64,000 nt of DNA, taken from NCBI GenBank assembly GCA_964493305.1, contig CAZBLW010000001.1:17743-81742 (forward strand), given 5' to 3'. Within the stretch, counting starts at the first letter, position 1; each line of letters opens with the position of its first letter. The notes below the pieces were generated by a model that was not told the DNA's origin, did not search any database, and saw nothing but the letters and a program-made list of their open reading frames with translations. Positions 17,732 through 38,053 of the stretch are shown in pieces. The translations under genes were made by a program, and so were the position numbers. This stretch comes from an uncultured Gammaproteobacteria bacterium (GTDB lineage Bacteria > Patescibacteriota > Patescibacteriia > S139-126).

Positions 17732-18884
17732 ATTTTTTCCAGTGGGTAGTCCACAGTAAGTACTTAAGTTGATGATAAATTTTTTCAGCTTTAAATTTTA
17801 TGTTTTTTTTGGTATTTAAGGTGCGGATAGTTTTGACCAGCTCTAAGGCCCCCTTTTCCACCTCTTCTGGATGCCAAGCTGGAGCACCAAATAATTTAAA
17901 ATCTTTGTTTGAGGCCCACCAAAAAGTACAACTCGCTAGTCCGCGATTTAGGTGATTTTCCGCCCAATAGTAATTATTGTCTTGAGGGTTATTGAATAAT
18001 TCTTGACTGGCCAATTTTGCCAGTTGCCACAATAATTGGTGAATTTTATTTTTTTGCCCTCGCCAAAGCGGAAAAATGAATTTTTGTTTTAATTCTTTTT
18101 CCAAACTTTCCCAATTGCCAGCTTGAGGGTCGGCAACAATTTCTTCGTTTAGTTGTTTTAAATATTGGTTTATACTAAGAGTTTGGATTTCTTGGTTTTC
18201 TAAAATTTTTCCTAACCAGCCTTGCCAGTCGATAAATCTCAAGCCATATAATTCAGCATCGGTGGCGGTGACTAAATATGGGGGCAATGGTTTTAGTTCC
18301 AAAGTTTTAACCAATTTTCTGGGTGGATAATCGAGCGACCAATCGCGCGACCGGAATACCAAGTTTAAGTTTGAATTTTTTAACTTATATTTTTTTTGCC
18401 AGTCAACTTGATTTAATTTTCCAGTTAAATTTATTTCGTCTAAAATCAGCCACTTATAATTATAGTCAGCAATCAACTGACCAATTTTTTTATTGTAGGC
18501 CATTTCTGGTAAAAAAAATCCCGATGCTTTAGTAGCAAAGTATTGTTGATTTATCTGTTGTTGTAGTTTTATTTGTTGGTGAACAATTTTTTCATCTACC
18601 AATGGTGCAATAGGATGATGCGACAAAGAGTCAACCAACTCTAACTGGCCGCTGGCAATCAATTTTTTAAAGCGCGTAATAATATCTTGATAACCATGAT
18701 CAACAAGTAGTTTTGTAAGACAGCCCGTCAGGTTTAAGCTAAAATGCCAGTTGGGATATTTTTCTGCCATCAACAAAATCCATTCGTAACTTTTTTTTAC
18801 CGCCTCATCTAATTTATCTTGGTCGGTGGTGGGTGGTAGATAAAAGTGTAAAAAATTTACCCAATAGTAAGTATTTTTTTTCAT
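17721..18884 (-). CDS. glycoside hydrolase family 57 (GH57) alpha-glucan-active enzyme
   Basis: Matches GH57 region II (GQLELVDSLSHHPIAPL) and region III (FFLPEMAY, candidate nucleophile Glu). Confidence 0.65.
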   Translation of the reverse strand: MKKNTYYWVNFLHFYLPPTTDQDKLDEAVKKSYEWILLMAEKYPNWHFSLNLTGCLTKLLVDHGYQDIITRFKKLIASGQLELVDSLSHHPIAPLVDEKIVHQQIKLQQQINQQYFATKASGFFLPEMAYNKKIGQLIADYNYKWLILDEINLTGKLNQVDWQKKYKLKNSNLNLVFRSRDWSLDYPPRKLVKTLELKPLPPYLVTATDAELYGLRFIDWQGWLGKILENQEIQTLSINQYLKQLNEEIVADPQAGNWESLEKELKQKFIFPLWRGQKNKIHQLLWQLAKLASQELFNNPQDNNYYWAENHLNRGLASCTFWWASNKDFKLFGAPAWHPEEVEKGALELVKTIRTLNTKKNIKFKAEKIYHQLKYLLWTTHWKKYGQ

Positions 18885-28677: not shown

Positions 28678-28886
28678 GATTGCATTATTTTATTTAGAAC
28701 CTCTTGGGCAGTTTGATTTTGTTTTTGTTTGTACTCAGCTTGAGTTGTAAATTCAATCACTATATTATCGCCAACAGTAATCTGCGCAGGCAAAATAGAT
28801 GTGCTAACAGTAATTTGTTCGCCGTTACTTAGTTGAATTTGTGCTTGCTGGTTATTGATTTGTTTGATAGTGGCTTCAATCATCAA
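28674..28886 (-). CDS. small hypothetical protein
   Basis: 70 aa. Overlaps both neighbours by 4 and 11 nt (translational coupling). No recognisable motif. Confidence 0.35.
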   Translation of the reverse strand: MMIEATIKQINNQQAQIQLSNGEQITVSTSILPAQITVGDNIVIEFTTQAEYKQKQNQTAQEVLNKIMQS

Positions 28887-29355
28887 TTTTTACTTTTATA
28901 GAAACAGCTTTAGTTGGTTTGGCTTTTGGCAAGATAACTGTCAAAATGCCATTTTTTAATTCAGCTTTGGTTTCTTCGATTTTTACTTCTACTGGCAAAA
29001 TTATAGAACGAGAAAATGAACCCCAATAACATTCTTGATAAAAATAATCTTCTTGTTTGATACTAGTATCGGCTTCACGTTTTCCCTTGATAGTCAGCAG
29101 ATCGTTTTGTAAAGATATATCAATATCTTCAGGTTTGACACCGGCAATGGTAGATTTGATAATAATATTATCCTTATCTTGAAATACATCGACCGACAAC
29201 TGACCTTCAACGTCTTCATCTAACCATTCTTGGTTATTGTTGGCGGTAGTAGCAGTAGGAGTAAGTTGGGAAAAATCATCTGACTCATTGGTCTTTTCAT
29301 CGACCAGGTCGTTTTGGTCTTTGGCTTTGCTAAATAGATTTTTAATTTTGGCCAT
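28876..29355 (-). CDS. Hsp20/alpha-crystallin-family small heat-shock protein
   Basis: Alpha-crystallin domain pattern: LSVDVFQDKDNIIIKSTIAGVKPEDIDISLQNDLLTIKGKRE...GSFSRSIILPVEV...NGILTVILPK. Confidence 0.85.
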   Translation of the reverse strand: MAKIKNLFSKAKDQNDLVDEKTNESDDFSQLTPTATTANNNQEWLDEDVEGQLSVDVFQDKDNIIIKSTIAGVKPEDIDISLQNDLLTIKGKREADTSIKQEDYFYQECYWGSFSRSIILPVEVKIEETKAELKNGILTVILPKAKPTKAVSIKVKIDD

Positions 29356-29499: not shown

Positions 29500-29590
29500 G
29501 GCGCCATCGTCCCCGCCTCGCCTTGACGAGCAAGGCGAGTCGAGGCGGGCCAGCCTCGACTAGACTGCGAGGCTAGGCGGGTAGGAGGTT
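29500..29590 (+). repeat. GC-rich nested-hairpin module beginning with a 12-nt copy of the tRNA-Glu 5' end (GGCGCCATCGTC) and ending in AGGAGG
   Basis: Perfect 9-bp stem CTCGCCTTG/CAAGGCGAG and 7-bp stem AGCCTCG/CGAGGCT, strongly GC-rich in an AT-rich window. The 16-nt stretch ttatGGCGCCATCGTC is identical at 29496-29511 and at 29856-29871, the start of the real tRNA-Glu. Confidence 0.7.
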
Positions 29591-29859: not shown

Positions 29860-29934
29860 GGCGCCATCGTCTAGGGGTTAGGACACCAGGTTTTCATCCT
29901 GGTAACCGGGGTTCGATTCCCCGTGGCGCTACCA
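29860..29934 (+). tRNA. tRNA-Glu (anticodon TTC), CCA encoded
   Basis: GGCGCCA-UC-GUCU-AGGGGUUAGGAC-ACCAGG-UUUUCAU-CCUGGU-AACCGGGG-UUCGAUU-CCCCG-UGGCGCU-A-CCA. Confidence 0.85.
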
Positions 29935-29943
29935 TAAAAAATT

Positions 29944-29970
29944 CATTCATTTTGTGAATGGATTTTTTAT
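29944..29970 (+). terminator. rho-independent terminator after tRNA-Glu
   Basis: CATTCA-tttgt-TGAATG followed by GATTTTTTATTTG. Confidence 0.55.
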
Positions 29971-29978
29971 TTGTAATA

Positions 29979-30121
29979 GCAGGGGAATCGAACGGGCAGG
30001 AATGAGCAACGAAATTTAGTTCGGAAGCGAATGTCGCACAAAGCGAGCGAGCGTAGCTTTGTGCGCTGCCCAGGGCAAGTCCCGCTAATAGCGGGACGCG
30101 GAATTCCCCGTGGCGCTACCA
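29979..30121 (+). repeat. second GC-rich nested-hairpin module ending in a 20-nt copy of the tRNA-Glu 3' end including CCA
   Basis: 10-bp perfect inverted repeat CGCACAAAGC/GCTTTGTGCG (30035-30065) and 7-bp GTCCCGC/GCGGGAC (30079-30097). 30102-30121 (ATTCCCCGTGGCGCTACCA) matches the tRNA-Glu 3' end. The 24-nt motif AGGGGAATCGAAC(C)GGGCAGGAATG is repeated at 29981-30004 and 30176-30198. Confidence 0.7.
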
Positions 30122-30273
30122 AGAGAAAAGGATTTAATTTTGAATTATGTCCTTTTTTCTTTGTCAGATTTTAGAGGGGAATCGAACCGGCAGGAATGCC
30201 CGCAGGCTGGCTTTTGTAAATTTTTTTAATAAAAAACTGCTGGCATTTGTGTCAGCAGTATAAAAGATTATAG

Positions 30274-30597: not shown

Positions 30598-30906
30598 ATG
30601 TTATTAGTGAAATCAGATTTCGATAGATTGGAGGAACACGCCGCCATGCATTTGGCTGACGATGAGGAAGTAGGTATAATCTGGCGTTGTCTTCAGACCA
30701 AGGCAACAATTTTATTTGTAGACTTTGAGCTTGAGGTTGATTATGGCATAGCAATAAAATCAGTGACAATTGATCGTCCGTATTGCCCCGAGTGCAATCC
30801 CCAAGCCAAAGACAAACCAGATATATTTTTACCCAGTTTAATCGAACCGTTACCTTACCAATATTTGATAAGCATACCTCGCCATCCAAATTTAAAACCG
30901 ATTTAA
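30598..30906 (+). CDS. hypothetical acidic protein with a CPEC motif
   Basis: 102 aa with AAAGG 10 nt upstream of the ATG. Preferred over the overlapping antisense ORF 30560..30889, which is W/C-rich and not protein-like. Confidence 0.35.
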   Translation: MLLVKSDFDRLEEHAAMHLADDEEVGIIWRCLQTKATILFVDFELEVDYGIAIKSVTIDRPYCPECNPQAKDKPDIFLPSLIEPLPYQYLISIPRHPNLKPI

Positions 30907-31092: not shown

Positions 31093-31383
31093 ATGATAGA
31101 AAAAAAATTAAAAATATTATTAAGCAATAATCAAACAAAAGAAATAATTTTTGAAATTGATGAAAACGGTTATACTCGTTTTCAAAGTGTAGCAATTAAA
31201 ATTTTAAACAAACAAAATCAATATGCTAGTAGGTATGTAGACGGTGCCTTCGGAGAATATCCAAATTTAGGAGAAGGATTAAGAATTAAAGGTAAATCTG
31301 ATGATTACCACGAAATGAAAATACATATTGATGATATTGAAGAATTCTGTAAAAGATATTTTGATTATATAAAAAATAGCTAA
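31093..31383 (+). CDS. hypothetical protein
   Basis: 96 aa with a good AAGGA RBS. Followed by a hairpin and T-run terminator at 31388-31416. Confidence 0.45.
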   Translation: MIEKKLKILLSNNQTKEIIFEIDENGYTRFQSVAIKILNKQNQYASRYVDGAFGEYPNLGEGLRIKGKSDDYHEMKIHIDDIEEFCKRYFDYIKNS

Positions 31384-31439
31384 ATTTAAACCGCCCTTCT
31401 CGGAGCGGTTTTTTCTATGTAAAACTATATAAAATGGAG

Positions 31440-31830
31440 TAGCTAGCGGAAATCGAAATGGTATGAATTATTGACTAATTTTTAACCCTGATATATAAAT
31501 AATACACAAAAAGTTCATTGCATTTTGCCAAAAGCATGGAAAGAGGAAAGTACCACTGACACCATTTCACAGGGAGGGTTTAGCTAGACTGAGACTAAAC
31601 CTGAAACAGGCCAGGCCGGGAAGTTCCCTCTGGAGCTGGATAACTGAAAATTTAGTAGGTTATCACGGGCGTTCCCGTTACAGAACTAACATATTTCTTT
31701 TTGAGTATGTGAAAGCGTTCTGAAAATTTTTTCAGAAAAATTAAGGTGGTACCGCGGATAGCGTTTGGAAAAGCGCTCTTCGTCCTTAAGTCAAATCTTG
31801 GATTTGAGGACAAAGAGCGCTTTTTATTTT
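31440..31830 (+). promoter_or_regulatory. T-box riboswitch leader (stem III, F-box, T-box sequence, terminator)
   Basis: T-box core AAGGTGGTACCGCGG at 31743-31757 against the consensus AGGGUGGNACCGCG. F-box CCGTTA at 31675-31680. Stem III TTCTGAAAA/TTTTCAGAA at 31718-31737. A 14-bp terminator stem GCGCTCTTCGTCCT/AGGACAAAGAGCGC plus T-run at 31773-31830 overlaps the antiterminator 3' side. Confidence 0.7.
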
Positions 31831-31862
31831 GCACATTAACAAACTAAATGTAAGGAGTAGTT

Positions 31863-32057
31863 ATGGAAAAGGTAGAAAAAAAACAAGCCGAATCACTTTT
31901 GATCAATCAATCCCATCAGTCGGATACCAAATTAAAACCAGAATTCAGACAAGGTATTTGTTCGGAAAAATACAATCAGAAATTGGTTGATCAATATAAA
32001 GAAGTGATTGAAAAAATCTTAGCAGAAGTGAGAGGCAAAAATTCACACGCCTGCTAA
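31863..32057 (+). CDS. small ORF (64 aa) downstream of the T-box leader, function unknown
   Basis: AGGAG RBS 8 nt upstream. Followed by the bidirectional terminator 32061-32088 (9-bp stem CCCCTCAAG/CTTGAGGGG). Confidence 0.4.
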   Translation: MEKVEKKQAESLLINQSHQSDTKLKPEFRQGICSEKYNQKLVDQYKEVIEKILAEVRGKNSHAC

Positions 32058-32103
32058 CAAAAACCCCTCAAGAGTCTTGAGGGGTTTTAATATTGGGAAA
32101 AAT

Positions 32104-33618
32104 TTATTCCAACAGATCGCCAGTTTGGTAAGTGTCCAGATCTTTAGCAGAGACTATGCCAATTGGTTGATATTGTAGATTGTTGTTAGATAAGGCAGTG
32201 CTATTTTTGATAGGTCTTTTAAGGCTTTCTTGCAATAAATAAACAGTTGGTTTATTGGCTTCTTTAACCAATACAATGTCAGGATAAGCCGCTAGGTCGT
32301 TTTCACTGATAGTAATAACTTTTTTGAAAGAATTATCGCGGTAAGAGTAAAAAGCATTTTCGCTCAAAATAACTTTTTTTCTTTGGTAATTATGATAAAG
32401 AAAATAAACAGCCGAACTATCTGGAGTTTTTACTAGTTTAGCCTCAGGGTATCTAGCTAATTCTTTAGCGCTTATAGTTTTGACCTGTGACCAGCTAAAA
32501 CCATAACCAGTAAAGATACTAGGGGATTTGATTAAATATTTTTGGTTTTTGACAAGGACATAAATGTTATTATCCCCACTAGCTTTAACTAGTTGATAGC
32601 TTTGTCCGTAAAAATTTTTTTGGCTATCATTTCCATATTCGTATCCCAAAACTTTTGGAGTTCTGGTTTGAAAAGAGATATCATTGGTTTCAAATTTTTT
32701 GCCAAACACATCACGACAGTATATCCGATATTGGTAGTCAGTACCAGTTTTTAGATCCTCAGCGATAAAGGAGTGTTCCCAAGTTTCATATCCAGTTTCC
32801 ACCAACTTTTTTTTGTATTTATTTTTCTCACCATATAAAAACTCACAATAAGCGGGTCGGGAAGTTAACCAGCTGGCCTTAATACTAACATCCGTAATAA
32901 AAGAGTCATTGTTGGACAAGGGTTTTTGGTTAAGCAGTTTTAAAGCCTCACTATCTGCTTGAGACCTAGTTGTAAAGTTGAGTACAGCGGTTTTGGTGGT
33001 GTTTTTACTAGTATCAGTGATAGTTACTTCATAATAATAAGTAGTATTTGGCTGCAGGCGGGATAAATTAATTTTAGCTTGAAAATCTTTGTTTTTATCA
33101 GAACTGGTACGAGCAGATTTGCTTTGTGATAAATCAGAGTAAAGGCTGTATTTTACTTCCGCACTTGTTTGTTCATTGGTTTGCCAAATTAAAAATGCAT
33201 TTGTATTATCAACGTATAAAATTTTCGGTATCGCCAAAAATGTCGGTGCTTTAGTATCAACAAATTTTTCTACTTTATAGTTGAAGGCAAATGAAATAAC
33301 TCTTTCTCCGGTAGCACTTTCGGCAATCACCCGATAATGATAAGTAGTTTTTTCTTTGGGCAATAAAATAGTTGCCTCTTGATAAGTGTTAAGGGTATTG
33401 GCGTGACTTACCCATAAATATTTTTCTGGTTCCAGTCCCACCTGTAACCAACCTTGAGCCGGTTGACTGGTTGTCCACTGGATAGTCAATTGGTTGTTAT
33501 CCAATTCTTTTACACCAATATTTAAAAATTCCAAATTAGCCGCTTGTGCTTGATAAACATCAAAATTACTAGCGGTTAAAATAAATAATATTAATAAAAT
33601 TGTTTTAAGTGATTTCAT
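32104..33618 (-). CDS. secreted protein with tandem fibronectin-type-III-like beta-sandwich repeats
   Basis: 504 aa. N-terminal signal peptide (MKSLKTILLILFILTASNFDVYQAQA) and repeated TTYYYEVTI / TTYHYRVIA motifs. Confidence 0.5.
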   Translation of the reverse strand: MKSLKTILLILFILTASNFDVYQAQAANLEFLNIGVKELDNNQLTIQWTTSQPAQGWLQVGLEPEKYLWVSHANTLNTYQEATILLPKEKTTYHYRVIAESATGERVISFAFNYKVEKFVDTKAPTFLAIPKILYVDNTNAFLIWQTNEQTSAEVKYSLYSDLSQSKSARTSSDKNKDFQAKINLSRLQPNTTYYYEVTITDTSKNTTKTAVLNFTTRSQADSEALKLLNQKPLSNNDSFITDVSIKASWLTSRPAYCEFLYGEKNKYKKKLVETGYETWEHSFIAEDLKTGTDYQYRIYCRDVFGKKFETNDISFQTRTPKVLGYEYGNDSQKNFYGQSYQLVKASGDNNIYVLVKNQKYLIKSPSIFTGYGFSWSQVKTISAKELARYPEAKLVKTPDSSAVYFLYHNYQRKKVILSENAFYSYRDNSFKKVITISENDLAAYPDIVLVKEANKPTVYLLQESLKRPIKNSTALSNNNLQYQPIGIVSAKDLDTYQTGDLLE

Positions 33619-35164: not shown

Positions 35165-35382
35165 ATTTAATAATCTGTTAGTACAAGTAAATAACAGACC
35201 TTCATTGGGAGTTAATGTCGCCCAATGTGTCGGCAGCAGAAAATTTATTTTAAATTAGTAGACCTGCCCGGGGTACGCCCGTTACAGCGTCCAAATCAAG
35301 TTTTTCAATTTTTTGAAAAATCGAGATGGTACCGTCCCTGTTTTGGGACTCTCGAAACACCTTAGGGGTGTTTTATTTTTTT
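35165..35382 (+). promoter_or_regulatory. T-box riboswitch leader of valS
   Basis: F-box CCGTTA at 35279-35284. Stem III TTTTCAA/TTGAAAA at 35302-35319. T-box-like GATGGTACCGTC at 35324-35336. Terminator AACACC-ttag-GGTGTT plus T9 at 35356-35382. Confidence 0.55.
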
Positions 35383-35416: not shown

Positions 35417-38053
35417 ATGGAAATACCAAAAGCTTATGAAGCAAAAAATTATGAAAATGATATTTACGCTCGTTGGGAACAAAGCGGTTATTTTAACCCT
35501 GATGTATTGATTGAAAATAAGCTAATTAAATCAACCGCCCCGGTATTTACTATTATTTTGCCCCCGCCCAATGTTACCGGTCAGCTTCACTTAGGTCATG
35601 CGGCTATGTTGGCATATGAAGATTTGATGATTCGTTACCACCGTCTGCAAGGTTACCAAGCTTTGTGGTTACCGGGTACTGACCATGCCGCTATTGCCAC
35701 GCAAACTAAAGTCGAGAAAATAATTTCTGCCCAAGGCCAAAAAAAAGAAGATTTGGGTAGAGAAAAATTTTTACAAACTGTCCGAAATTATGTTGACGAA
35801 TCAAAAACAACTATTCGCAATCAAATTAGAAAAATGGGTTCATCACTTGATTGGTCGCGAGAAAAATACACTCTAGATGAAGACATTTCACAGACCGTTT
35901 ATCAGGTTTTTAAAAAAATGTATGATGACGGTTTGATTTATCGAGGCAATAGAATCGTCAACTGGTGCCCTCGTTGTCAATCAACTTTGGCTGATGATGA
36001 AGTTGAATACGAACAACAACAAGCCAATCTTTATTATCTTAAATACGGACCCGTAGTCATTGCCACTACCAGGCCAGAAACCAAACTAGGTGATACTGGA
36101 CTAGCTGTTAATCCAACTGATAAACGCTACCAACATTTATTGGGAAAAGAGTTAGAAATAAATTTTGGGGTAAGCAGTATTAGAGTAAAAGTTTTTGCTG
36201 ACAGCGAAGTAGATCCAGAATTTGGTACAGGGGCAATTGGCGTGACCCCGGCGCATTCGCAAGTAGATTTTGCTTGGGCAGAAAAATATCAATTGCCGAT
36301 AGTAAAAATAATCGATGAACAAGGAAAAATGACAGCTCAAGCCGGAAAATACGTAGGACAAGATGTTCTAGTTTGTCGTGACAATTTTTTAGCGGATTTA
36401 AAGCAAGCGGGTTTGTTGGGAAAAATAGAACCAATAACCAACAACATTTCTCTTTGTTATCGCTGTCATACTCCGATTGAACCGCTCACTTCACGTCAAT
36501 GGTTTATTGCTGTCAATAAAAAAATTCCTAAGTTAAATAAATCTTTGAAAGAGTTGTCACTAGACGCAGTCCGAACTGGACTAGCTAACAGGAGTGACAA
36601 AAAAATTGAAATTATACCAGAACGTTTTAACAAAGTTTATTTTCACTGGATGGAAAATTTACGTGACTGGTGTATTTCCCGACAAATTTGGTGGGGTCAT
36701 CGCATCCCCGTGTGGTACAAAAATCAAGAACAAGGAGTAAACAATCAGGGACAAGTAGATCAGGCAGCAGAAATTTATGTTGGCGTTGAGCCACCTCCAG
36801 GTGAGGGCTGGGTGCAAGATGAGGATACTTTAGATACTTGGTTTTCTTCGGCTCTGTGGACGTTTTCTACATTAGGTTGGCCACAAGGCAATGATTTTAA
36901 ACGTTTTCATCCTACGCAAGTCTTGGAAACAGGTTATGATATTTTATTTTTTTGGGTAGCGCGAATGATTATTATGACCACTTATACTACTGGACAGATT
37001 CCTTTTCACAAAGTTTATTTGCACGGCTTGGTACGCGATCGGCAGGGGCGGAAAATGAGTAAATCTTTAGGCAACGGTATTGATCCCTTGGCGATGATTG
37101 ATAAGTTCGGCGCTGATGCTTTGCGACTGTCGATGATAATTGGCGTAACTCCAGGAAATGATTTAAGTTTATATGAAGAAAAAATTGCTGGTTATCGAAA
37201 TTTCGTCAATAAACTTTGGAACATATCGCGTTATATATTGATGAATTTATCTGAACCGAAATTGACTGATAAATTTCCCCCAGCAAAAACTTTAGCTGAT
37301 GAATGGCTATTGTCAGAATTTAACAATTTAATTTTCCAAGTAACTACTGAACTAAATAAATATAGATTTTCTCAAGCTATAGAAATACTGTATGAATTTG
37401 TCTGGTCAAAGTTGGCTGATTGGTATTTGGAAATTGCCAAAATTGAAACTGATAAAGAAGAAATATTGAATTACATTTTACAAAAACTGTTAATTCTAAT
37501 ACATCCGTTTGTACCCTTTGTCAGTGAAGCAATATGGACTGAAGTTTTCAATCCGTCTAAGCAAAACAGGTTGTTGCTGATGGTACAAAGTTGGCCCCAA
37601 GCAGAAAAAGTCAAAACCACCAAACAAGTAAAATTGTTTTCAGTCTTACAAAAGTTAATCGTCAATATAAGATCAATAAAAAATAGCAGTGGTTTATCCA
37701 GTAGTCAAATTGTACCTGTAGATATTTTCACTACTGATTATTTAGTCGTTTTCCAACAACATCAAGAGATTATTGAAAAATTAGCTCGAGTAAAGATTAG
37801 TTGGTTGAAAAAAAATCCGACCAAAAATAATCAACTTATAATTGCTCCCGAGTATAGCTTTATTTTTAAGTTGGATATAAAACCTAAAGATCAAAGCAAG
37901 GAAATAGAAAATTTAGAAAAATTTATTAATGGTTTAGAAAAAAAGTTAAACAATAAAGAATTTACAAAAAAAGCACCAGCAGAAGTGGTTGCCAAAGAAA
38001 AGAAAAAATTGGCAGAAGCTAAGAAAAAATTAAAACAAATAAAAAACCCTTAG
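35417..38053 (+). CDS. valS: valine--tRNA ligase
   Basis: 878 aa. PPPNVTGQLHLGHA (HIGH), KMSKSLGN and a C-terminal coiled-coil. Confidence 0.95.
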   Translation: MEIPKAYEAKNYENDIYARWEQSGYFNPDVLIENKLIKSTAPVFTIILPPPNVTGQLHLGHAAMLAYEDLMIRYHRLQGYQALWLPGTDHAAIATQTKVEKIISAQGQKKEDLGREKFLQTVRNYVDESKTTIRNQIRKMGSSLDWSREKYTLDEDISQTVYQVFKKMYDDGLIYRGNRIVNWCPRCQSTLADDEVEYEQQQANLYYLKYGPVVIATTRPETKLGDTGLAVNPTDKRYQHLLGKELEINFGVSSIRVKVFADSEVDPEFGTGAIGVTPAHSQVDFAWAEKYQLPIVKIIDEQGKMTAQAGKYVGQDVLVCRDNFLADLKQAGLLGKIEPITNNISLCYRCHTPIEPLTSRQWFIAVNKKIPKLNKSLKELSLDAVRTGLANRSDKKIEIIPERFNKVYFHWMENLRDWCISRQIWWGHRIPVWYKNQEQGVNNQGQVDQAAEIYVGVEPPPGEGWVQDEDTLDTWFSSALWTFSTLGWPQGNDFKRFHPTQVLETGYDILFFWVARMIIMTTYTTGQIPFHKVYLHGLVRDRQGRKMSKSLGNGIDPLAMIDKFGADALRLSMIIGVTPGNDLSLYEEKIAGYRNFVNKLWNISRYILMNLSEPKLTDKFPPAKTLADEWLLSEFNNLIFQVTTELNKYRFSQAIEILYEFVWSKLADWYLEIAKIETDKEEILNYILQKLLILIHPFVPFVSEAIWTEVFNPSKQNRLLLMVQSWPQAEKVKTTKQVKLFSVLQKLIVNIRSIKNSSGLSSSQIVPVDIFTTDYLVVFQQHQEIIEKLARVKISWLKKNPTKNNQLIIAPEYSFIFKLDIKPKDQSKEIENLEKFINGLEKKLNNKEFTKKAPAEVVAKEKKKLAEAKKKLKQIKNP

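Follow-up and report, generated by a model that had tools for sequence, protein, structure and literature searches.

We sought to determine why a T-box riboswitch, an RNA that senses tRNA charging, should stand in front of an open reading frame (ORF) of only 64 codons on contig CAZBLW010000001.1, and which amino acid such a switch would serve. The DNA analysed, hereafter the window, is a 64,000-nt stretch covering positions 17,743 to 81,742 of the forward strand of that contig, and all coordinates given below without a locus name refer to it. The typical T-box target is a gene for aminoacylation, amino-acid synthesis or transport, and the 64-amino-acid (aa) protein encoded here matches no known family. 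In the survey of Wels et al. (PMC2494555), 62% of T-box targets were tRNA ligases, 12% transport genes and 18% biosynthesis genes, while the remaining 8% were of unknown or unrelated function, the anti-TRAP gene being among them. The evidence assembled below confirms that the RNA belongs to the T-box family, indicates that the amino acid it reads is very probably phenylalanine, with valine as a minor alternative, and shows the same leader in front of homologous small ORFs in every related locus scanned.

In a scan with Rfam covariance models, the leader (31528-31790, + strand) matched the T-box family RF00230 with a score of 110.3 bits (E = 1.7e-23), the gathering score being 93, and aligned over the entire model, positions 1-219. 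All stem I helices have their counterparts in the cmscan alignment, the K-turn region and the distal platform included, as do stem II, stem IIA/B with its F-box CCGTTA (CCGUUA in RNA, 31675-31680) and stem III (31718-31737); the two sides of the specifier loop are GAAAGUA (5′) and GAAGUUCC (3′). The T-box sequence, AAGGTGGTACCGCGG in DNA, reads AAGGUGGUACCGCGG in the cmscan alignment, with the UGGU bulge at 31747-31750; this bulge would pair with the ACCA-3′ of an uncharged tRNA having discriminator A. Folded alone, the segment 31740-31795 adopts the canonical bulged antiterminator with UGGUACC unpaired (dG -17.3 kcal/mol), and the fold of 31740-31835 is a long hairpin spanning 31768-31825 (dG -40.5, z -5.9), as stable as which none of 200 shuffled sequences could be found. 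The 5′ arm of this terminator is the 3′ half of the antiterminator, 31768-31789 being common to both, so that only one of the two structures can form at a time, as is the case for T-boxes that act by transcription attenuation. The leader also carries two lineage-specific additions to the Rfam model. An extra hairpin, predicted by RNAalifold, occupies a 22-nt insertion between stem IIA/B and stem III, and its stem is almost invariant, so that covariation neither supports nor opposes it. The antiterminator loop contains a 17-20-nt insertion relative to the Rfam consensus (31759-31779, +), which folds as a small hairpin and supplies part of the 5′ arm of the long terminator. Every feature of sequence and structure that could be tested for is thus present, confirming the RNA as a member of the T-box family. 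An earlier note on this DNA had recognised a complete leader by its F-box, stem III and T-box sequence, all of which are found at the positions just given, and had described a 14-bp terminator overlapping the antiterminator; the overlap stands, whereas the helix is longer than was thought, at about 24 bp (13+11).

Relatives of the locus were sought among species-representative genomes, using the neighbouring 504-aa protein as the query. Two were found in which this protein is 76-78% identical, one of them from Candidatus Paceibacter sp. (phylum Minisyncoccota in the NCBI taxonomy), and in each of them a 58-codon homologue of the 64-codon ORF stands behind a full T-box, which scores 126.5 bits in one and 111.7 bits in the other. 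With a profile of the three small proteins, seven database proteins were retrieved; when 1.84 billion representatives were searched exhaustively by profile, a single more distant member, P0008, was added, while metagenome locus L049 and cluster member P0009 brought the family to 10 sequences of 58-64 aa from Paceibacter-like genomes and metagenomes (the homologues of the 64-aa protein being P0002-P0009 and L049). In every locus scanned, a T-box above the Rfam threshold lies directly before the ORF (104.4-126.5 bits), and the arrangement occurs in at least nine distinct sequence lineages. A larger gene or an aminoacyl-tRNA synthetase (aaRS) gene after the leader was not found in any relative, the same small ORF following instead, and a BLAST search with the leader against the 120 metagenome stretches listed in the survey described below yielded no close paralogue besides L049. 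The arrangement first described in the window, a T-box with a small ORF as its only regulated gene, is shared by all 10 members of the family, with a full T-box upstream in every locus scanned.

The leader itself has been maintained both in sequence and in structure. In an alignment of eight loci, conservation extends over the -35 and -10 hexamers, the entire leader and the ribosome-binding site (RBS), column identity averaging 87%, and the leader terminator is nearly invariant. Over nine distinct homologous leaders, 96.6% of cells are paired in the canonical Rfam-derived structure, on which pairs were counted because the consensus fold produced by RNAalifold itself contained spurious long-range pairs. 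Six pairs (18 cells) have changed on both sides, against 0-2 pairs in controls in which the partners were slid by 1-3 columns; these compensatory changes are located in stems I, II and III, and the distal helix of stem I shows CG-to-UA double changes in four of the nine leaders. It is worth mentioning that one of the related loci, L004 (CAZINS010000009.1), is entitled “uncultured Gammaproteobacteria bacterium”, a label that probably stems from mistaken binning or taxonomy: its genes are syntenic with those of the Paceibacter-like loci, and its counterpart of the 504-aa protein shares 78% identity with that of the window.

The promoter, the riboswitch, the small gene and its terminator (Table 1) are likely to form a self-contained monocistronic unit. 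We infer the sigma-70-type promoter from its sequence and its conservation: TTGAC and TATAAA are invariant columns in the eight-locus alignment while their flanks vary, and the -10 hexamer ends in A instead of T. An (A/G)GGAG motif is found at the identical distance before the start codon in all of the aligned relatives. Beyond the gene, a hairpin (dG -19.5, z -5.7) is predicted that, with A and T runs flanking it, can act in both directions, and hairpins of different sequence occupy the equivalent position in the related loci examined. A good RBS and a bidirectional terminator had both been called in the earlier note, and both hold up. Directly beyond the hairpin lies the convergent 504-aa gene (32104-33618); a convergent gene of about 505 codons follows the small ORF in every locus, and the longer loci go on with tsaD, tsaE and valS. 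Since in the loci examined each ORF is followed by a hairpin and a convergent gene, the unit is monocistronic, and since the gene upstream of it differs among genomes (96-aa, 134-aa and NUDIX genes occur in this place), it is autonomous. Its wider neighbourhood comprises tsaD, tsaE, valS and a gene for a secreted FN3-type protein.

Table 1. Coordinates of the features of the T-box unit, and of the valS leader, in the window.
Feature	Position	Strand	Description
Putative sigma-70-type promoter	31471-31499	+	-35 TTGACT 31471-31476; 17-nt spacer; -10 TATAAA 31494-31499
T-box leader	31528-31790	+	Stem I with K-turn, specifier loop and distal platform; stem II; stem IIA/B with F-box; stem III; antiterminator
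Specifier loop, 3′ side (GAA-G-UUC-C)	31620-31627	+	Probable specifier UUC (Phe) 31624-31626; alternative -1 frame GUU 31623-31625
Predicted extra hairpin, lineage-specific	31689-31710	+	Between stem IIA/B and stem III, in a 22-nt insertion relative to the Rfam model
Antiterminator helix	31741-31789	+	7-nt bulge UGGUACC 31747-31753; from fold and cmscan alignment
Leader intrinsic terminator	31768-31830	+	13+11 bp hairpin 31768-31825, then U-rich tail
RBS (AAGGAG)	31852-31857	+	5 nt upstream of ATG; read from sequence
Gene for 64-aa protein	31863-32057	+	Variable disordered N-terminal part, PEFRQG motif, long amphipathic helix, C-terminal His-Ala-Cys
Hairpin terminator	32060-32088	.	Separates the small gene from the convergent 504-aa gene; A and T runs on its flanks
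Reduced T-box leader of valS	35192-35356	+	Upstream of valS (35417-38053)

The start codon, frame and length of the small gene are kept in all members of the family, which have in common a PEFRQG-like motif and a hydrophobic repeat pattern; the C-terminal H-A-C followed by the stop codon, in the ending (S/C)HAC, is invariant in 10/10. In pairwise Nei-Gojobori comparisons, the proportion of synonymous differences (pS) is 0.29-0.81, near saturation in many pairs, and that of non-synonymous differences (pN) is 0.12-0.50; pN is below pS in 28/28 pairs, dN/dS is 0.15-0.73 wherever dS could be computed, and in the C-terminal half pN is down to 0.02-0.06 between the closer pairs. This is the pattern expected of a translated gene under moderate purifying selection, the N-terminal part of which is fast-evolving. 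From the family alignment, AlphaFold2 models the N-terminal part at low confidence and predicts a single long helix at residues 30-61, with a pLDDT of 94 at residues 41-50. The proteins are hydrophilic (grand average of hydropathy -0.5 to -1.2) and mildly basic (pI 7.9-9.8), contain 1-2 Cys each, and carry neither transmembrane nor signal sequences. Pfam and NCBIfam gave no match to the 64-aa protein, in agreement with the earlier view that it belongs to no recognisable family; a profile search of PDB sequences returned chance matches only (E ≥ 0.65), Foldseek found no matches to the AlphaFold model in PDB, as expected for a lone helix, and a word-indexed search with the single sequence recovered only the protein itself. 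The profile search of 1.84 billion representatives revealed no relatives outside the clade. Because of its amphipathic helix with a broad hydrophobic face, the lack of transmembrane or signal sequences and the invariant HAC, we speculate that the protein may be a binding or oligomerising regulator rather than an enzyme or a transporter. Its family contains 1.3% Phe, compared with 4.7% in the proteins of the window, which is weakly consistent with synthesis during phenylalanine shortage.

Which tRNA the switch senses depends on how the 3′ side of its specifier loop is read. This octamer is invariant in every homologous leader aligned and can conceivably be read in three frames, as GUU (Val), UUC (Phe) or UCC (Ser). 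The rule adopted in TBDB takes as the specifier nucleotides 2-4 from the 3′ end of the covariance-model bulge, and the codon is therefore UUC, which in that database is the specifier of 99% of Phe T-boxes (PMC7778990). The UGGU bulge fits a discriminator base A73, and in this respect suits Phe and Val alike. While tRNA-Val typically has A73, tRNA-Ser typically has G73, which could pair with UGGU only by wobble, and the UCC frame was disfavoured for this reason.

Metagenomes were surveyed with the pattern GGAAAGTA-N(50-80)-GAAGTTCC-NNNN-GGAGC, which is found in 16 of 17 loci (the exception, L013, consists of DNA that begins at the ORF) and in at least 120 metagenome stretches. The following counts apply to the matches listed. 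In 71 of 120 stretches, the leader is soon followed by the start of an ORF of 150 aa or more; the ORFs were grouped by BLAST clustering, and one representative per cluster was scanned with Pfam. The clusters comprise 44 PheS (tRNA-synt_2d and Phe_tRNA-synt_N), 10 DAHP synthases, 5 ABC substrate-binding proteins, 4 EPSP synthases, 3 PaaK-like AMP-binding enzymes and 1 SSF transporter. Pfam together with reading of the ORFs added two PheS, raising their number to 46, one of them in a pheS-pheT operon, as well as three further DAHP synthases, one of which is fused to chorismate mutase; at several other loci, a pheT-sized ORF lies about 1.25 kb downstream. The UGGU bulge is present in nearly all of these leaders. 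Several matches were set aside as due to chance: the singletons L074, L064 and L020 are without the UGGNACC bulge, and Rfam recognises no T-box either in these three or in the L055/L023 group. The survey also revealed same-loop leaders in front of PaaK-like enzymes (AMP-binding and AMP-binding_C_2 domains; L039, L086 and L120) and of binding proteins of the ABC_sub_bind type (L038, L048, L062, L106 and L110), and we regard both kinds of genes as candidates for a phenylalanine-related annotation.

Several points weigh against reading the locus as a unit under phenylalanine control. Where a purine usually follows the codon, UUC is followed here by C, for which the G at the start of the loop's 5′ side is a possible pairing partner; the argument that the metagenome survey provides against the GUU frame is an indirect one. 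No gene for tRNA-Phe or tRNA-Val lies within the 64-kb window, in which the anticodon and discriminator of tRNA-Phe are thus unseen, and pheS, sought for a T-box of its own, was not found in the window or in loci L001-L017. A simple promoter/terminator consensus scanner made no calls within 31350-32150, because of which the promoter and the terminators rest on folding and conservation. It should also be kept in mind that all family members come from one narrow clade, so that conserved synteny says little about function, and that with no homologue, domain or fold match any function ascribed to the protein is conjecture.

If the C and G at the end of the specifier loop did pair, the loop would close one base earlier and the frame would therefore shift to GUU; the switch would then sense tRNA-Val, placing the small gene in a valine regulon with the nearby valS, which has a T-box of its own 3.5 kb away. 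GUU in the -1 frame directly follows the S-turn GAA, as does the codon in glyQS leaders, and the UGGU bulge would suit tRNA-Val as well. However, among the metagenome matches listed, leaders with the GAA-G-UUC-C loop precede pheS and aromatic-pathway genes and never valS. Moreover, the stem I loop of the valS leader in this lineage ends on its 3′ side in a maintained GUC and purine, whereas its GUU is not conserved, so that a Val leader in these genomes uses GUC. T-boxes in general disfavour specifiers ending in U, which according to TBDB seldom have a matching tRNA, and Val leaders favour GUA or GUC (PMC7778990). We consider valine very unlikely to be the amino acid sensed, and turn to explanations that would alter the role of the ORF rather than that of the codon. 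The RNA could be the functional product and the ORF incidental, the leader serving as a tRNA sponge, or its read-through transcript acting by antisense or interference on the convergent 504-aa gene. It is true that the leader, with its column identity of about 87%, is far more conserved than the ORF, and that the small gene and the gene of about 505 codons are adjacent and convergent in every locus; but frame, start, RBS, length and the C-terminal HAC are kept in all members, and synonymous changes outnumber non-synonymous ones. In addition, a strong hairpin separates the two genes and in relatives keeps its structure with a different sequence, while a trans-acting sponge, suggested in the earlier note, is neither needed, since every T-box leader binds tRNA, nor supported; altogether, an incidental ORF is very unlikely.

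The same note had raised the prospect of a relic. On this view, an aaRS, transporter or biosynthesis gene once regulated by the T-box would have been lost or rearranged, and the ORF now found behind the leader would be there by chance. Such an origin would agree with the kinds of genes that T-boxes normally precede, and about 8% of T-boxes do stand before unknown or unrelated genes, perhaps as annotation artefacts in some cases (PMC2494555). We reject it as extremely improbable, given that the arrangement persists in at least nine distinct sequence lineages, with the conserved promoter and both terminators intact, that the ORF is under purifying selection, that no relative has a larger gene after the leader, and that the ORF is dissimilar to any larger protein among 1.84 billion representatives. 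Finally, the small protein might not be a regulator but a substrate or carrier, its HAC being used for metal binding, thiol chemistry or aminoacyl-tRNA-dependent peptide modification. The invariance of H-A-C-stop in all ten members while the remaining protein varies would be in line with such a use, and control by tRNA charging ties the protein to aminoacyl-tRNA supply. On the other hand, neither a modifying enzyme nor a biosynthetic cluster adjoins the gene, and the genomes, with contigs of 558 and 717 kb, are very small. Moreover, a T-box induces on uncharged tRNA, the opposite of what a process consuming Phe-tRNA would require; we hold such a use to be highly unlikely. The explanation that we favour is a new small protein tied to tRNA charging, as had also been proposed at the outset, with its open ORF, invariant C-terminus and dN/dS below 1.

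Comparison with known systems shows that the switch itself is conventional and its target is not. The leader shares with the Phe T-boxes of pheS-pheT and aromatic genes (RF00230) its above-threshold architecture, the GAA-G-UUC-C loop, the UGGU bulge and the terminator/antiterminator switch; it differs from them in the extra hairpin between stems IIA/B and III and the 17-20-nt insertion in the antiterminator loop, and in having as its target a lone ORF of 58-64 codons unrelated to aminoacylation, transport or biosynthesis. For such a target, the closest precedent is anti-TRAP (53 aa) of Bacillus subtilis, where likewise a tRNA-sensing T-box drives a very small protein that is neither an enzyme nor a transporter. 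Anti-TRAP is described as a small zinc-binding protein that is induced by uncharged tRNA-Trp through a T-box and binds TRAP (PMC10327191), and its gene, rtpA (yczA), is among the T-box-controlled genes in Table 2 of the survey (PMC2494555). A tiny protein behind a T-box was initially regarded as unusual; it is indeed unusual but, with anti-TRAP as a precedent, not without parallel. The two proteins have no similarity in sequence or fold, the 1-2 Cys found here contrast with the Cys-rich zinc motif of anti-TRAP, the amino acid is Phe here and Trp there, and no TRAP-like partner is known here. Anti-TRAP chains are absent from the PDB profile matches at E up to 10, in a database where its solved structures should be included. 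While rtpA is co-transcribed with ycbK, the unit described here is monocistronic. The small protein is thus an analogue of anti-TRAP in logic only, and not a member of its family. The antiterminator-loop insertion also has a parallel, in the stem Sa that is inserted into the antiterminator/terminator domain of staphylococcal glyS T-boxes (PMC9177973). In both cases a lineage-specific insertion is found in this domain of an otherwise canonical T-box, whereas sequence, host lineage, amino acid and regulated gene all differ. We found no relevant description of T-boxes in Patescibacteria or the candidate phyla radiation (CPR) in the searchable literature, which amounts to no more than absence of evidence.

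From the established T-box mechanism we infer the tRNA steps of regulation, and with them the identity of tRNA-Phe as the ligand in the host organism and the direction of the response. When uncharged tRNA-Phe accumulates, its GAA anticodon would pair with the UUC specifier and its free ACCA-3′ with the UGGU bulge; this pairing would stabilise the antiterminator over the overlapping terminator, and RNA polymerase would continue into the 64-codon gene. Charged tRNA-Phe would be unable to make the second contact, so that the terminator would form and transcription would stop near 31830. What the protein might then do can be suggested, speculatively, by analogy with anti-TRAP: it could bind another protein or form a coiled coil, thereby adjusting the cell to phenylalanine shortage, and a signal of phenylalanine limitation could plausibly adjust uptake, proteolysis, translation or growth. 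Patescibacteria have been reported to possess reduced genomes without many typically essential pathways and to have very limited biosynthetic capacity, because of which these bacteria probably obtain amino acids from outside. A bolder proposal, which on present evidence we think unlikely, is that the HAC-terminated protein is a dedicated effector of phenylalanine starvation, so far confined to Paceibacter-like ultra-small bacteria, which would either bind a core machine, such as PheRS, the ribosome, a protease or an uptake system, or use its HAC chemically. If true, such an effector would constitute a minimal amino-acid starvation response in organisms from a group reported to be severely limited in biosynthesis.

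The valS gene downstream had likewise been credited with a T-box leader, and in this case the constituent elements are found while the score falls short. Stem I is a short hairpin (approximately 35203-35227) with a terminal loop ending in GUC and a purine, and is followed by stem II, an F-box, stem III, a UGGU bulge and a hairpin with a U run; the match amounts to 37.7 bits in the window and to 32-47.5 bits overall, relatives included, which is below the RF00230 gathering threshold of 93 because of the reduction of stem I. The reduced stem I resembles that of the ultrashort class of T-boxes, known from actinobacterial ileS. The M. tuberculosis ileS leader is described as the paradigm of a translational T-box (PMC11297988), whereas the valS leader, ending in a hairpin and a U run, looks transcriptional.

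On the other side of the T-box unit, the tRNA-Glu at 29860-29934 has its last 19 nt (29916-29934) repeated at 30103-30121, and in the stretch that follows (29916-30198, +) a 24-nt motif at 29981-30004 recurs at 30175-30198. The DNA in between has about 49% GC, compared with about 30% in the genome, is conserved in L006 and matches no Rfam family; possible explanations are a scar from the integration of an element at the tRNA and a structured RNA not yet recognised as such. Between this region and the T-box unit lies a 102-aa ORF (30598-30906, +), without a Pfam match on record where it was looked up, same-length copies of which occur in L004 (12188-12496), L006 (7031-7339) and L001. Farther upstream, a 72-nt segment of 69% GC (29507-29578, -) precedes the HSP20 gene (28876-29355, -) and gives a weak sub-threshold match to “aspS RNA” (RF02930; 29.1 bits against 42.5, E = 0.016); it may represent a structured 5′ untranslated region of this small heat-shock gene.

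T-box specifiers name the amino acid served by the gene that follows, and have hence been used to infer gene function. In the present case, the logic of the specifier assigns a role in phenylalanine limitation to a family of small proteins beyond the reach of annotation by homology, in a group of hosts (Patescibacteria/Minisyncoccota) whose regulation is almost unstudied. On the practical side, the analysis yields a tested rule, that GAA-G-UUC-C loops mark Phe leaders, and the recognition that the reduced valS leader of this clade escapes the Rfam threshold. Overall, the switch is a familiar one, whereas its target is unfamiliar and resists annotation, and the phylum has been little studied; the locus would be the second case, after anti-TRAP, of a T-box driving a tiny non-enzymatic protein. 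It would offer a compact and testable entry into amino-acid sensing by ultra-small symbionts, and the finding would gain considerably in importance should the protein turn out to be a starvation effector acting on a core machine.

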